From: Acidimicrobiia bacterium
GTDB lineage: Bacteria > Actinomycetota > Acidimicrobiia > Acidimicrobiales > Aldehydirespiratoraceae
Reading direction: 5' to 3'
DNA: 64,000 bases
Assembly: GCA_024421085.1 (NCBI GenBank)
Contig: JAHQYN010000003.1
Span: 4,721-68,720, forward strand
The notes beneath the pieces are model-generated. The model was not told the DNA's origin and made no database searches. It saw nothing but the letters and a program-made list of their open reading frames with translations. The position numbers and the translations under genes are program-made. Of this stretch, positions 30,211-43,661 are shown piece by piece (the stretch's first letter is position 1; each line of letters begins with the position of its first letter).

Positions 30211-31277
30211 GTTCAGCGCCCTCCGGAATCGATCCTGACCCTGTGAGCGAATGGATTCTGATGCGTCGGGCGGATCTCGCCGTTCCGCTCGACTTCGAGT
30301 TGATCACCGGCGGCGCCTCCAACCTCACCTTCGCGGTCACTGACCAGTCGGGCCAAAGGCTGGTGCTGCGGCGCCCTCCGACAGGCCACGTCCTGCCCCG
30401 TGCCCACGACATGGCACGCGAGCATCGAGTCATCTCCGCGCTGCGCGACACCGAAGTGCCGGTCCCCGAAACCGTCGGCCTATGCACCGACGACTCCGTA
30501 AACGGCGCCGACTTCTACGTCATGGAGTTCGTCGAAGGCTCGATCGTCTTCAACGAGGCCGACGGCAACGCGGTGGACCCCGCATTGCGGCCGGCGATGG
30601 CGAACTCCCTCACCGACACGCTCGCAGCGCTGCACAAGATCGATCCCGCCTCGGTCGGACTCGGCGACCTCGGACGCACCGAAGACTATTGCGCCAGGCA
30701 GTTGCGCCGTTGGAAACGCCAGGTCGATGACGGTTCAGACCGAGTGGTGCCGCTGTTCGACGACCTGCATCAGAGGTTGACCCGGACCGTGCCCCCGCAA
30801 CAGGGCGCCGGGATCGTCCATGGCGACTACCGCTTGGACAACACCATGGTGGGCCCTGACGGAACGGTCGCCGCGGTGCTCGACTGGGAGCTATGCACAC
30901 TCGGCGACGTGCTCGCCGATGTGGCCAGCATGGCGATGTGGTGGGGCGACGACCCTCGCGCCACAGGCCGCCTGCGCGATGTGCCCACCAAGGCAGACGG
31001 CTTCGGATCACGCTCAGAGATGCTCGAGCGGTACGGACAAAACTCCGACCGCGACATCTCGGATCTCCCCTGGTACGTCGCCTTCCAACACTGGCGGATG
31101 TCAGCGATTAGCGAAGGGGTCCGAGTGCGCTACGCAGCCGGGGCCATGGGCGACCAGGACGGCACCGCCGACAGCGATACCAGAGCCAGCATCGACTCAA
31201 TGCTGCAGATCGCCGACGAGATCCTCACCAGCGGCCAGCTGTATCGACCAACAGACCCTGCCACCCTCACGCCTTAG
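30207..31277 (+). CDS. phosphotransferase family protein (APH/choline-kinase fold)
   Basis: IVHGDYRLDNTMV and VLDWELCTLGD catalytic motifs. Confidence 0.85.
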   Translation: MSSAPSGIDPDPVSEWILMRRADLAVPLDFELITGGASNLTFAVTDQSGQRLVLRRPPTGHVLPRAHDMAREHRVISALRDTEVPVPETVGLCTDDSVNGADFYVMEFVEGSIVFNEADGNAVDPALRPAMANSLTDTLAALHKIDPASVGLGDLGRTEDYCARQLRRWKRQVDDGSDRVVPLFDDLHQRLTRTVPPQQGAGIVHGDYRLDNTMVGPDGTVAAVLDWELCTLGDVLADVASMAMWWGDDPRATGRLRDVPTKADGFGSRSEMLERYGQNSDRDISDLPWYVAFQHWRMSAISEGVRVRYAAGAMGDQDGTADSDTRASIDSMLQIADEILTSGQLYRPTDPATLTP

Positions 31278-31332
31278 CCTTGACCCACCGGTGCGGTGAG
31301 GTGTTGGGGTGTGGGGTGTCGATCAGAAAGGC
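31276..31332. repeat. IS-end-like sequence, copy A (matches 35221-35277)
   Basis: 57-bp alignment with ~7 mismatches. The core ggtgttggggtgtggggtgtc is identical. Confidence 0.75.
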
Positions 31333-35220: not shown

Positions 35221-35813
35221 AGCCTGGATCCACCGGTGTGGTGCGGTGTTGGGGTGTGGGGTGTCCACTAGAAAGGCCTCCTCACATGGGAGAATGCTGT
35301 CGTTGGAGACAGGCATTTCGAACATGTGAGGAGGCACTTCCTGTGAGCCGCATATCTGGTGGGATTGATGGGGTGGAGGTTCATTTCGATGACGGGTCTT
35401 TGGTGGGGGATGCGGGTTTGTCGTTGGCGGGCACGGTGATGGATCGTTTGGGGCTTGAGGCGATGGTTGATGAGGTGGTGCGTCCGCCGAGTTCGGGGCG
35501 GGGGTCGGGCGCGAAGGCGTTGTCTGTGGTGGCGTCGATGCTTGTGGGCGGTTCGTTCATCGACGACGCTGACAGGCTGCGGTCGGGGTCAACAGCTCAG
35601 GTGCTGCCCGTTGAGGTGTCGGCGCCGTCGACTTTGGGAACGTGGCTGCGGTCGTTCACGTTTGGGCATCTGCGCCAGTTCGACCGTGCTCAGGAACTGG
35701 CGTTGGGGCGGGCGTGGTCTGTGGGCGCGGCACCTGGCTCGCCTTCCAAGCGGGCTGGCGGCTCGGTGACGCGGCCGGGAGCGGCCCAACCGCGAGCGCC
35801 CCAAGATAGGTGA
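35221..35813 (+). mobile_element. 5' portion of an IS1380-family element: terminal sequence copy B, 12-bp inverted-repeat hairpin, truncated transposase
   Basis: From GTG 35343: VSRISGGIDGVEVHFDDGSLVGDAGLSLAGTVMDRLGLEAMV...SMLVGGSFIDDADRLR resembles an IS1380 transposase N-terminus, with only ~135 aa of homology. cctcctcacatg (35277-35288) pairs with catgtgaggagg (35323-35334). Confidence 0.65.
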
Positions 35814-35899
35814 GAGGCTGTGTATCGGCGACGCGGCGATCCCTGCTCTTGTTCGCCGGGCCCACCGCCCGCTCCGAGACACACGGTAGCCTCAGGCGC

Positions 35900-36166
35900 A
35901 TGGGACATATCATCGACATCAAGTACTGCGTACCTTGAGACTATTCGAGCTACGCCGTGAGCGCAGCCAAAGACCTGCTCACCAACTACCAGCACGTCAT
36001 AGAACGCTTGACGCTGACCACGGGATCTCAAGGTGTGTTCGATGTCACCGTCGACGGCGAACTGATCTACTCCAAAGACCGGACCGGACGCCACGACGAA
36101 CCCGGTGAGGTCCTCGCACTCTTCGAGAAGACCGTCGGCGACGTGAAACGCTACGGTCAGGGGTGA
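35900..36166 (+). CDS. SelW/SelT/Rdx-family redox protein with in-frame UGA (CxxU), candidate selenoprotein
   Basis: The ATG at 35900 gives MGHIIDIKYCVP-U-DYSSYAVSAAKDLL...GVFDVTVDGELIYSKDRTGRHDEPGEV. The TGA (35936-35938) is at the second Cys position of the Rdx CxxC/CxxU motif, in the same frame as track ORF 35957-36166. Confidence 0.6.
35949..35967 (+). promoter_or_regulatory. candidate bacterial SECIS hairpin
   Basis: gcuacgc-CGUGA-gcgcagc: a 7-position stem (6 base pairs plus one A-C mismatch) and a 5-nt loop with GU. The loop G is 21 nt from the U of UGA. Confidence 0.4.
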
Positions 36167-36228: not shown

Positions 36229-36276
36229 CCTTCAACAGGACCACCCTTCAACAGGACCACCCTTCAACAGGACCAC
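36229..36276. repeat. three perfect tandem copies of ccttcaacaggaccac (16 bp)
   Basis: Read directly. It lies between the convergent 3' ends of the Rdx-family gene and the LOG gene. Confidence 0.9.
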
Positions 36277-37876: not shown

Positions 37877-39433
37877 GTGGTTGACCAGTCAATGAGCGCC
37901 AAGCTCGACGATCTTCGTGATCGCAAGGATCAAGCGCTGCGTGCAGGCTCTGAGCGCTCCGTCTCGCGCCAGCACAACAAAGGCAAGATGCTGGCCCGGG
38001 AGCGAATCGACTACCTGCTCGATGAGGGCTCTTTCAACGAACTCGACATGCTGGCCCGTCACCGGGCGCACGAAGCCGGACTGGCGGAGCGCCCCTACAC
38101 CGACGGGGTCATCACCGGTTGGGGAACCGTCGACGGGCGCAAGGTGTTCGTGTTCTCACAGGACTTCACGGTCATGGGTGGCGCGCTCGGTGAAGTCTTC
38201 GCGGAGAAACTCCACAAGGTGATGGACCTAGCGCTGGCCACCGGAGCGCCGATGATCGGGCTCAACGACGGTGCCGGTGCCCGTATCCAGGAGGGTGTCG
38301 TTTCGCTCGACGGCTACGGCGGCATCTTCTTCCGCAACGTCCAGGCCTCGGGGGTCATCCCGCAGATCTCGGTGATCCTCGGCCCCTGCGCCGGGGGCGC
38401 GGTCTACAGCCCGGCCATGACCGACTTCATTTTGATGGTGCGCGAGAAGTCGCACATGTTCATCACCGGTCCCGACGTCGTGAAGACGGTCACCGGTGAG
38501 GAGGTGTCGCTCGAGGAGCTCGGCGGAGCGGGCAGTCACGCCAGCAAGTCGGGCGTCGCCACGTTCGTCGCCGACTCCGAGGAGCAGGTGCTCGACGAGG
38601 TCAAGGACCTGTTGAGTTTCCTGCCGTCCAACAATCTCGATCAGACCCCCCGGGTCGAGTCCAGCGACGATCCTGACCGCCTCTGCCCCGAACTCGACGA
38701 GATCCTGCCGGACAGCCCCAACGTGCCCTACGACATGAAGCTGGTGATCGCCTCCGTTGTCGACGACGGCGACTTCATGGAGTACCACGCCAGTTGGGGT
38801 CGCAGCATCACCTGCGGTTTCGCCCGTGTGGACGGACGGGCCGTCGGCGTCGTCGGCAACCAGCCGATGATGCTGGCCGGCGTGCTCGACATCGACTCGT
38901 CGGAGAAGGCCGCCCGCTTCGTTCGCACCTGCGACGCCTTCAACATCCCGCTGCTGACCTTCGTTGACGTCCCCGGCTTCCTGCCCGGTGTCGACCAGGA
39001 GTACGGGGGCATCATCCGGCACGGGGCGAAACTCCTGTACGCCTACTGCGAGGCGACCGTGCCGCGCATCCAGGTCATTACCCGCAAGGCGTACGGCGGT
39101 GCCTATGTGGTGATGGACTCGAAATCGGTGGGTTCAGACCTGTCGTTCGCCTGGCCGACCGCAGAGCTCGCGGTGATGGGCCCGCAGGGCGCGGTGGAGA
39201 TTCTCTACCGACGTGAACTGGCAGACGCGGCCGACGCGGACTCGCGCCGCACCGAGCTGATCGACGATTACACCGACCGTTTGGCGAATCCCTATGTCGC
39301 CGCCGAGCGCGGCTATGTGGACGACGTGATCGAGCCGTCGCAGACCCGCCAGAAGGTCGTGGCAGGGTTCCAGTTGCTCGAGTCGAAACGCGAGGAGTTG
39401 CCGGAGCGCAAGCACGGCAACGTGCCCCTGTAG
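37877..39433 (+). CDS. accD: acyl-CoA carboxylase carboxyltransferase (beta) subunit, AccD5/PccB type
   Basis: Full-length carboxyltransferase domain pair, with a typical ...KHGNVPL C-terminus. Confidence 0.9.
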
Positions 39434-42294: not shown

Positions 42295-43573
42295 CAATCG
42301 CGGTGAATTGCTTGAGGCGATTCGACTGGGCGAGACCAGCTTTCTTGAACTCAAAGAAGTACGCTTCTCAGGACTCAAGGTTGCAGGCCCGTCTCGCGAT
42401 GATCTGGCGGATGAAATCGCGGCATTCGCGAACAGCCGGGGCGGAGTACTCGTTCTCGGAGTAGAGGACAGCTCCCGTGACATCATCGGTGTCCCCGATG
42501 ACAGGCTTGATGCTGTTGTCAACTTCGCGAAGGAAATTTGCAACGACTCCATCACTCCGCCGGTCGAGCAGTTCGTGTTGGATCGAGTGTCGCTGCCTTC
42601 CGCTACCGGGCGCATGGCAAGCGTCGTGAAACTTGAGGTGCCACGGAGCCTCTTTGTGCACCGTAGCCCGGGGGGATACTGGCATCGTGCCGGTGACTCG
42701 AAACGAATCATGACGCCAGATTTGTTGGCTCGGCTCTTTCAACAACGCAGTCAGACGCGGCTGATCCGGTTTGATGAGCAAGCCGTGACCAACGCGCGCA
42801 TCGGTGATCTCTCAGAGGAGTTGTGGGCGCGATTCCGCACCCCGCGTTCGGACCATGAACCGGAAACGTTCTTGGCCAAACTCGGTATGGCCGTGCGAGC
42901 CCACGATGGCGCTGTCAGGCCGTCAGTTGCGGGAGTTCTGATAGGCAGCGACGCACCCGAACAATGGTTACCGAACGCATATGTGCAAGCAGTGGCGTAT
43001 CGGGGCACGTCGGTCCTCCCCGAAAGCGTCGCCATGAACTATCAACTCGACGCGTCTGACTTCACTGGACCGTTGGATCGGCAGGTCATCGAGGCCAGTC
43101 GATTCGTCTCCAAGAACATGCGTCAGGGCGCATCCAAGGTAGTCGGACGTGTCGACGAACCCCAATTCGACATGGCTGCCGTATTCGAGGCGTTGGTGAA
43201 CGCTGTCGCTCACCGAGACTACGCGATCCACGGAGCGAAGATACGGCTGCGCCTCTTCGATGACAGACTGGAACTGTTCTCGCCCGGTGCGTTGGCGAAC
43301 TCGTTGACAGTCGACTCGTTGCGGTACCGCCAGACGGCGCGCAACGAAACGGTATGCAGTCTGCTGACGCGATGTACCGCGCCTGACGAGCCGTGGTTGA
43401 CCATCGGTCGTGCACACCTGATGGAAAAACGCGGCGAGGGAGTGCCGATAATACTCGACAGCAGCACGGCGCTCTCGGGGCGCGAACCCGAATACCGCGT
43501 GCTCGACGATGCGGAGCTGATGCTGACCATACACTCCGCGAACAAGAACCCATCGGTGGCTGACGGTGGTTGA
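42287..43573 (+). CDS. AlbA_2 (Schlafen-like) domain protein with C-terminal HATPase_c_4-like domain
   Basis: ETSFLELKEV...EIAAFANSRGGVLVLGVEDSSRDIIGV (AlbA_2) and VFEALVNAVAHRDYAIHGAKIRLRLFDDRLELFSPGAL. Start reset to MLDNRGELL, overlapping the upstream stop by 8 nt. Confidence 0.8.
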   Translation: MLDNRGELLEAIRLGETSFLELKEVRFSGLKVAGPSRDDLADEIAAFANSRGGVLVLGVEDSSRDIIGVPDDRLDAVVNFAKEICNDSITPPVEQFVLDRVSLPSATGRMASVVKLEVPRSLFVHRSPGGYWHRAGDSKRIMTPDLLARLFQQRSQTRLIRFDEQAVTNARIGDLSEELWARFRTPRSDHEPETFLAKLGMAVRAHDGAVRPSVAGVLIGSDAPEQWLPNAYVQAVAYRGTSVLPESVAMNYQLDASDFTGPLDRQVIEASRFVSKNMRQGASKVVGRVDEPQFDMAAVFEALVNAVAHRDYAIHGAKIRLRLFDDRLELFSPGALANSLTVDSLRYRQTARNETVCSLLTRCTAPDEPWLTIGRAHLMEKRGEGVPIILDSSTALSGREPEYRVLDDAELMLTIHSANKNPSVADGG

Positions 43574-43580
43574 GCACTCA

Positions 43581-43661
43581 ATGAACGTCAAACGCGACGA
43601 TCTTCGTGAACGCAGGGACCAAGCATTGAGCGCGGGCTCGCAGATCGGACCGTTGCGATGA
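43581..43661 (+). pseudogene. 26-codon relic of a second accD-like carboxyltransferase gene
   Basis: MNVKRDDLRERRDQALSAGSQ resembles the AccD N-terminus [21 protein letters not shown] at 37892. The terminal IGPLR* resembles GNVPL*. Its stop overlaps the accE ATG (ATGA). Confidence 0.4.

Follow-up and report, generated by a model that had tools for sequence, protein, structure and literature searches.

SelW-like proteins of prokaryotes that carry a CxxU motif have been known since 2005 (PMC1088965) and are the most abundant prokaryotic selenoprotein family in the GOS and Sargasso Sea data (PMC2398784, PMC1088965). Very few Cys homologues occur in Sec-using organisms (PMC1794560), and reviews from 2022 and 2026 list the family as 'predicted with high confidence' (PMC9312934, PMC13188914). 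The window, a stretch of 64 kb, includes a gene that agrees with this description on all points tested. It shares with the prokaryotic SelW-like proteins the domain (PF10262/TIGR02174) and the single-Sec CxxU motif; in both cases a SECIS-type hairpin with a G in its small apical loop directly follows the UGA; and both the family and the clade of the window gene are found mostly with Sec, Cys forms being few or absent, in marine or marine-host lineages (PMC1088965, PMC1794560, PMC2398784, PMC13188914). The window gene is an ordinary CxxU form and a new SelW-like member of a family that is itself already well known. The Acidimicrobiia clade is not specifically described in that literature, which makes no mention of a probable leaderless promoter, a conserved pairing with tpx or UxxU sub-variants (PMC1088965, PMC1794560, PMC2398784, PMC13188914). 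The mammalian proteins SelW, SelT, SelH and SelV, as well as MIEN1, share the Pfam family and the CxxU/CxxC position with the window protein. The eukaryotic SECIS, however, is a kink-turn element located in the 3′ UTR, whereas that of the window is a small hairpin of the bacterial type within the coding region. Taking together the comparisons of nucleotide and amino acid sequences described below, we estimate a probability of about 0.9 that positions 35900-36166 of the forward strand are a genuine Sec-encoding SelW-like gene.

Reading frame and family assignment

Direct reading of the window sequence showed that the ATG at 35900 opens the frame MGHIIDIKYCVP, which runs into an in-frame TGA and continues beyond it in the same frame as DYSSYAV... 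and DYSSYAVSAAKDLL... until a stop TGA at 36164-36166 (Table 1). The mechanical list of open reading frames includes only the portion from GTG 35957 to 36166, 69 amino acids. A sequence-only reading of this DNA had proposed a hidden selenoprotein gene on the basis of this frame, the position of the TGA, the shortened open reading frame and a hairpin, and all these statements hold.

Table 1. Coordinates of the features discussed in the text (window numbering unless a locus is named)
Feature	Position	Strand	Basis or remarks
Full SelW-like/Rdx selenoprotein coding sequence (predicted)	35900..36166	+	88 codons including Sec13, plus TGA stop
Cys10 (TGC), first residue of the C-V-P-U redox motif	35927..35929	+	Aligns with first Cys of CxxC in 3dex_A and 2fa8_A
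Sec13, in-frame TGA as predicted selenocysteine codon	35936..35938	+	Conservation; aligns with second Cys of CxxC in solved Rdx proteins
Putative bacterial SECIS hairpin	35949..35967	+	5′ arm 35949-35955, loop CGUGA 35956-35960, 3′ arm 35961-35967
GTG used as start by gene callers; Val20, apex of the putative SECIS loop	35957..35959	+	List of open reading frames; GTG invariant in 25/25
-10-like hexamer TAGCCT (TANNNT), putative leaderless promoter	35887..35892	+	7 nt upstream of ATG
N-terminal stump of an IS1380-family transposase	35238..35813	+	NF033539, E = 3.5e-14, profile positions 2-119 of 419; context
4.6 kb insertion specific to this genome	31244..35865	.	blastn synteny breakpoints, gene content
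UxxU sites	L009:9971-9982, L011:6089-6100, L013:9971-9982, L015:9971-9982		In the context TAT TGA GTT CCT TGA

The read-through protein, with U entered as C, matched the Pfam Rdx profile PF10262 at 62.3 bits (E = 5e-17; threshold, 22.6 bits) over profile positions 2-71 of 74, while the 69-amino acid product alone scored 39.8 bits. The comparison of both values indicates that about 22 bits of Rdx signal come from the 19 N-terminal residues that are dropped in the shorter version. The NCBIfam model TIGR02174 (CXXU_selWTH) was matched at 49.4 bits (cut-off, 34.2), and the score with the equivalog NF041051 (SelTWH_Campy), 68.1 bits, is below its 88-bit cut-off, as is expected of a related protein that is not a member. 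The closest solved structures are those of the bacterial Rdx proteins 3dex SAV_2001 (E = 8e-8) and 2fa8 Atu0228; MIEN1 (2ljk) was matched at E = 8.6e-4. In the alignments with 3dex_A and 2fa8_A, their YCTQC corresponds to YCVP-U in the window protein, so that C10 and U13 coincide with the CxxC and the TGA occupies the place of the second Cys of the redox motif. Both the Rdx/SelW assignment, with the two curated thresholds (PF10262 and TIGR02174) passed, and the location of the TGA at the second-Cys/Sec position are therefore as the sequence-only reading had them. The Cys-form Rdx structures (3dex, 2fa8, 2obk, 2oka, 2ojl and 2p0g) are homologous over residues 3-86 of the window protein, and they differ from it at the active site: they have CTQC followed by Trp or Asn, while the window protein has CVPU followed by DY. 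The structure model of P0022, the one database homologue called at full length (all others are missing the N-terminus), was of low confidence (pLDDT 59.7) with a disordered N-terminus; a Foldseek search with this low-confidence model returned Rdx crystal structures as all of its top 21 matches (TM about 0.5, E = 0.05-2).

A protein search identified 229 relatives. Among the 120 listed, 116 are called at 67-72 amino acids, and several listed database homologues carry JGI names, e.g., 'predicted Rdx family selenoprotein'. The first 19 codons are lost in annotation because gene callers take the Sec UGA for a stop, and the start would be miscalled at the GTG across nearly the whole family because an RNA function, that of the SECIS loop, holds this triplet invariant. 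The main value of the analysis lies in this annotation: the decoy GUG start leaves the family about 19 residues short and without the catalytic CxxU, and surveys of selenoproteomes or redox enzymes in Acidimicrobiia, sponge symbionts included, would overlook the active site.

Conservation of the TGA codon and of the hairpin that follows it

The orthologues compared were 24 Acidimicrobiia loci (59-87% protein identity) and two loci from Planctomycetota, all from a one-genome-per-species collection; the window and the 24 orthologues together make up the 25 Acidimicrobiia sequences referred to hereafter. Reading at the DNA level showed TGA at the CxxU position in all 25, and in the two Planctomycetota homologues as well; TGC at this position was found in none of the 26 homologous loci. 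The codon for Cys10 is TGC or TGT in 21 of the 25 sequences and TGA in the remaining four. Upstream of the TGA, Val at -2 is encoded by four different codons across the 25 sequences, Tyr at -4 by TAC in 12 and by TAT in 13, both CAT and CAC are used for His at -10, and codon position 3 collects most of the substitutions in the region (104, 94 and 285 at positions 1, 2 and 3). At the protein level, the six codons between the TGA and the GTG show in-frame conservation, and neither a frameshift nor an extra stop was present in the 25 aligned Acidimicrobiia copies. Judged by this pattern of substitutions, the 12 codons upstream of the TGA evolve as coding sequence. The sequence-only reading had held that close orthologues with TGC and no conservation of the hairpin would indicate a nonsense-mutated pseudogene; the orthologues gave the opposite result, with TGA in 26 of 26 loci and a hairpin that covaries.

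No Cys-form homologue was found among the five listed matches whose sequences were read. The only one of the sequences read that spans the site, P0022 (ENA, 609-bp contig), has Leu at the Sec position (YCVPLDY), a single base away from TGA. This Leu is probably the product of a TGA-to-TTA/TTG change or an error; it could represent a sequencing error, a real loss-of-function allele or a called read-through, and it is not a Cys form.

The hairpin, GCUACGC/CGUGA/GCGCAGC, begins 10 nt past the UGA and consists of six Watson-Crick pairs and one A.C mismatch, with the G of the loop 21 nt from the U of the UGA. Taking this U as 1, positions +14-20 pair with +26-32. Compensatory changes (UAC/GUA, CGU/ACG, CAC/GUG, CGC/GCG) were found in five of the seven stem pairs across the 25 sequences. 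The covariation score was 0.195, compared to 0.112 ± 0.015 in column shuffles, none of 500 of which reached it, and when the 3′ partners were slid by one to three columns as a control the score was at most 0.075. The same helix was predicted independently by RNAalifold. The triplets GCC GUG AGC (Ala-Val-Ser), which form the loop and its closing pairs, do not vary in any of the 25 sequences, each residue having a single codon; at the other invariant Gly, Val, Ser and Leu positions, three to five codons occur. This single-codon use indicates a constraint at the nucleotide level. The folding energy of the single hairpin was not better than that of shuffled sequence (z = -0.12 and -0.65); by energy the hairpin on its own is no evidence, and the case for it rests on the comparative data. 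Scanning the window against Rfam at the gathering threshold produced no match, and bacterial SECIS elements are poorly represented in Rfam (bioRxiv 10.64898/2026.04.03.716425). The SECIS-like hairpin that had been noticed from the sequence alone is found at the same place in the orthologues, covaries and keeps an invariant CGUGA loop.

The geometry was compared with that of E. coli fdhF, read from the genome, in which the UGA is codon 140, the upper stem starts at +15, an irregularity is located at U17/U18 and the GU of the loop is at +23/+24. The bulged U and the loop GU of the fdhF SECIS function in SelB binding. In the window hairpin the stem starts at +14, the A.C mismatch is at position 17 and the loop GU is at +22/+23, all within 1 nt of the fdhF positions. 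The window hairpin differs in that its stem is shorter and weaker (seven pairs, one of them a mismatch), in that it does not have an extended lower helix and in its loop, CGUGA as opposed to GGUC. Its conservation, covariation and geometry suggest that the hairpin is a bacterial SECIS that would recruit SelB.

Upstream region, insertion and neighboring genes

A -10-like hexamer is located immediately upstream of the gene (Table 1). In an alignment of the window with 12 close orthologues, TA(A/G)CCT did not vary; the 7 nt between it and the ATG did, and they have no Shine-Dalgarno motif. A separate scan for TANNNT, which skipped the UxxU loci and overlaps with, without being identical to, the alignment of 12 orthologues (which includes L009), found the motif at -13 in 13 of 13 sequences; it was present at -12 to -14 in four of eight distant orthologues. 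A generic sigma-70 consensus scan found no promoter, using a consensus that does not model the -10-only promoters of actinobacteria. TAGCCT could be such an actinobacterial -10 element, driving a leaderless mRNA.

Comparison by blastn showed that synteny with the orthologous loci extends up to 31243 and is recovered from 35866-35899 until about 36192. Where the orthologues hold about 700 bp with tpx, the window has a 4.6 kb insertion that encodes an Mrr-type nuclease (Mrr_cat), a ParB_N protein and a DNA methyltransferase and also holds HTH and PP2C fragments and the IS1380 stump. The sequence-only reading had placed the end of this stump less than 90 bp upstream of the gene and considered that the native promoter may be disturbed by it. 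The stump is real and its open reading frame does end 87 nt before the ATG, but the part homologous to the transposase ends at about 35711, some 190 nt upstream. The concern about the promoter is probably unfounded, since the sequence is again homologous to that of the orthologues from a point 1-34 nt before the ATG, TA(A/G)CCT included. The insertion, of a mobile or restriction type, has removed tpx and spared the last 34 nt or so before the ATG together with the -10-like box.

The product of 69 amino acids is found in identical form on five contigs, shown as four places from four samples. Two of these contigs are long (L028 and L029), and both have the flanking genes found in the window; L029 is 99.9% identical to it. 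The agreement of the flanks in both long contigs indicates that the arrangement is stable in the population.

Several repeats were found in this part of the window. A 57-nt direct repeat (87.7% identity) at 31276-31332 and 35221-35277 brackets most of the inserted segment, and its copies may be the ends of a mobile islet. A perfect tandem repeat of three 16-nt units (CCTTCAACAGGACCAC) is located at 36229-36276, 63 nt past the stop of the Rdx gene, in a region without homology to the orthologous loci. Farther downstream, a 74-nt direct repeat (81% identity) is present at 37877-37950 and 43566-43639. Its first copy is the 5′ end of a carboxyltransferase gene and its second copy ends a gene pair coding for a 940-amino acid SMC_N/AAA_23-like protein and a 428-amino acid AlbA_2/HATPase_c_4 protein; this looks like another inserted, defense-like module.

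The gene for a thiol peroxidase, tpx (NF001808, 231 bits), was found next to the Rdx selenoprotein gene in 15 of 16 close orthologues, divergently transcribed (e.g., L003:9337-9834, minus strand) and with the two start codons about 110-300 bp apart. The whole 64 kb window has no tpx. In the distant genomes L018, L019 and L021, the place of this pairing is taken by a rubrerythrin gene that comes after the Rdx gene. Gene neighborhood of this kind suggests a function in peroxide defense, and the tpx and rubrerythrin neighbors are a testable hint on the function of bacterial SelW-like proteins.

Selenocysteine decoding, alternative readings and UxxU variants

Searches by tblastn with the E. coli SelA, SelB and SelD probes found no homologue of selA, selB or selD in the window or in the related loci L001-L031, and a run of ARAGORN over the window and L001-L026 detected no tRNA-Sec; the related loci searched for the Sec machinery amount to about 600 kb altogether, in addition to the 64 kb window. 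A complete Sec machinery was reported in Actinomarinales, another order of the class Acidimicrobiia (bioRxiv 10.64898/2026.04.03.716425). From the conservation pattern, the presence of a second selenoprotein family in related genomes and the Actinomarinales preprint, we infer that Sec is decoded in this organism. The second family is UGSC: less than 10 kb from the Rdx orthologue, L018, L019 and L021 have a gene that matches NF041046 at 152 bits (cut-off, 125) with an in-frame TGA at the U. Downstream of this TGA comes the hairpin CGUGCA-GUG-UGCACG, whose apex, GUG, occupies +23-25. In each of these genomes, the mRNAs of two unrelated selenoproteins share an apex and its distance from the UGA, as would be expected if a single SelB serves both.

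The related loci were also scanned for conserved in-frame TGAs. The first pass was swamped by off-frame TGAs, and with a codon-position filter most candidates proved to be antisense frames or true stops; the only survivors were the UGSC gene and one unclassified open reading frame in L018, L019 and L021. The latter, of about 480 residues (L018:388-1839), is directly upstream of the UGSC gene, has an N-terminal CPAC motif and an in-frame TGA at 745 (also L019:2110 and L021:1380) in the context DFKPG-U-GSLSVDP, and matches no Pfam or NCBIfam model. It may code for an unclassified selenoprotein. A scan of the 64 kb window for further Sec TGAs, based on a GC3 signature and hairpins, found no credible case. 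Five extra candidates came up: the three inspected translate to junk, two of them opposite long open reading frames, and the remaining two were set aside due to a base composition typical of an antisense frame.

If the gene is decoded as proposed, transcription from TAGCCT would begin at or next to the A of the ATG, producing a leaderless mRNA, and translation would arrive at the UGA at codon 13. There, the hairpin would recruit SelB-GTP-Sec-tRNASec, leading to the incorporation of selenocysteine and not to termination. The predicted product is a small thioredoxin-like protein in which Cys10-Val-Pro-Sec13 would cycle between the selenol/thiol and the selenenylsulfide, acting, by analogy with the family, as a thiol-dependent oxidoreductase. 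Its probable function, by association with the neighboring genes tpx and rubrerythrin, would be in peroxide defense.

Other explanations of the interrupted frame were considered. A former CxxC Rdx gene could have been inactivated by a TGC to TGA mutation, a difference of only one base, and the adjoining IS stump and 4.6 kb insertion, as well as the failure to find the Sec machinery in the window or the related loci searched, would be in agreement with such a nonsense-mutated pseudogene. However, a dead gene would not be expected to have TGA in 26 of 26 homologous loci, each from a different species, and TGC in none, nor to show purifying selection on the codons upstream, a covarying hairpin and 25 aligned Acidimicrobiia copies free of frameshifts and extra stops; we regard this explanation as highly improbable. 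The conserved upstream peptide and its coding-type evolution argue equally against a 69-residue product preceded by an untranslated leader. According to that explanation the annotation is right, translation starts at GTG 35957, the 12 upstream codons are a leader peptide or uORF and the hairpin is regulatory. Exactly this open reading frame is called by NCBI and other pipelines and, shortened as it is, its 39.8 bits are still above the Pfam Rdx threshold. Yet the Rdx profile runs unbroken from its position 2 across the TGA with the CxxC on C10 and U13, the short protein would not have the first strand or any of the redox motif, amino acids are conserved in frame over the six codons that separate the GTG from the TGA, and the GTG has no Shine-Dalgarno motif and is inside a stem-loop, all of which makes it very unlikely that the annotated protein is the real one.

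It is also unlikely, if less strikingly so, that the selenoprotein gene is intact by descent but has been silenced or made dispensable in this genome by the loss of upstream regulatory DNA and tpx to the insertion. Homology to the orthologues is indeed lost upstream of 35866-35899, the 64 kb window has no tpx, and the consensus scan found no sigma-70-type promoter. Nevertheless, that scan ignores -10-only actinobacterial promoters, the -10-like hexamer and the start codon are retained, the same arrangement and an identical product are found in several independent samples, and the open reading frame, the TGA and the putative SECIS are all intact. Reading of the UGA by a near-cognate tRNA (Trp or Cys) or through a recoded genetic code would not need the Sec machinery, which for this genome is an expectation drawn from its relatives. 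This idea is hardly credible considering that the same gene terminates with TGA, that the site is the exact Cys/Sec position of the family, that a covarying hairpin with a geometry similar to that of fdhF lies downstream of the TGA, and that a second recognized selenoprotein gene with a similar hairpin exists in the related genomes L018, L019 and L021. An intact Sec-encoding gene is the preferred reading.

Selenoproteins of the UxxU type are known; fish SelL is one of them. Four Aldehydirespiratoraceae genomes (L009, L011, L013 and L015; Table 1) have TGA at both redox positions of the SelW-like gene, generating U-V-P-U. They form a shallow clade with flanks 96-97% identical, to which L002 and L007, with TGC at the first position, are the sister genomes. 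All four copies of the gene are intact, but the divergence among them is too small to prove selection. A pattern scan of metagenomes for UxxU resulted in one more gene, in L042 (minus strand, about 320-340); the other eight of nine pattern matches were chance hits. The SelW-like lineage of L042 is clearly distinct (Pfam Rdx, 71.7 bits); the gene has its own Shine-Dalgarno motif and a perfect hairpin, GAGGCC-GUG-GGCCUC, with the GU at +22/+23 from the second UGA. The occurrence of UxxU in a shallow clade and in the unrelated L042 indicates at least two origins within the SelW-like family. UxxU was recorded for Prx-like 2, a putative mercuric reductase and FmdB-like proteins (PMC2398784, PMC13188914); the 2022 and 2026 reviews do not give it for SelW-like proteins (PMC9312934, PMC13188914). 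As in the known UxxU selenoproteins, both positions are UGA in L009, L011, L013, L015 and L042, while the window gene is CxxU.

All five UxxU genes retain a single downstream hairpin. If functional, these forms would require a single SECIS to act on both UGAs, across spacers of 19 and 10 nt. As a tentative hypothesis, which we think somewhat more likely to be wrong than right, the SelW-like protein could be a dedicated selenium redox partner of the adjacent Tpx, made from a leaderless mRNA, with one SECIS decoding two UGAs 9 nt apart to produce a U-x-x-U diselenide. The UxxU variants are a natural test of how strict the UGA-to-SECIS spacing is in bacteria.
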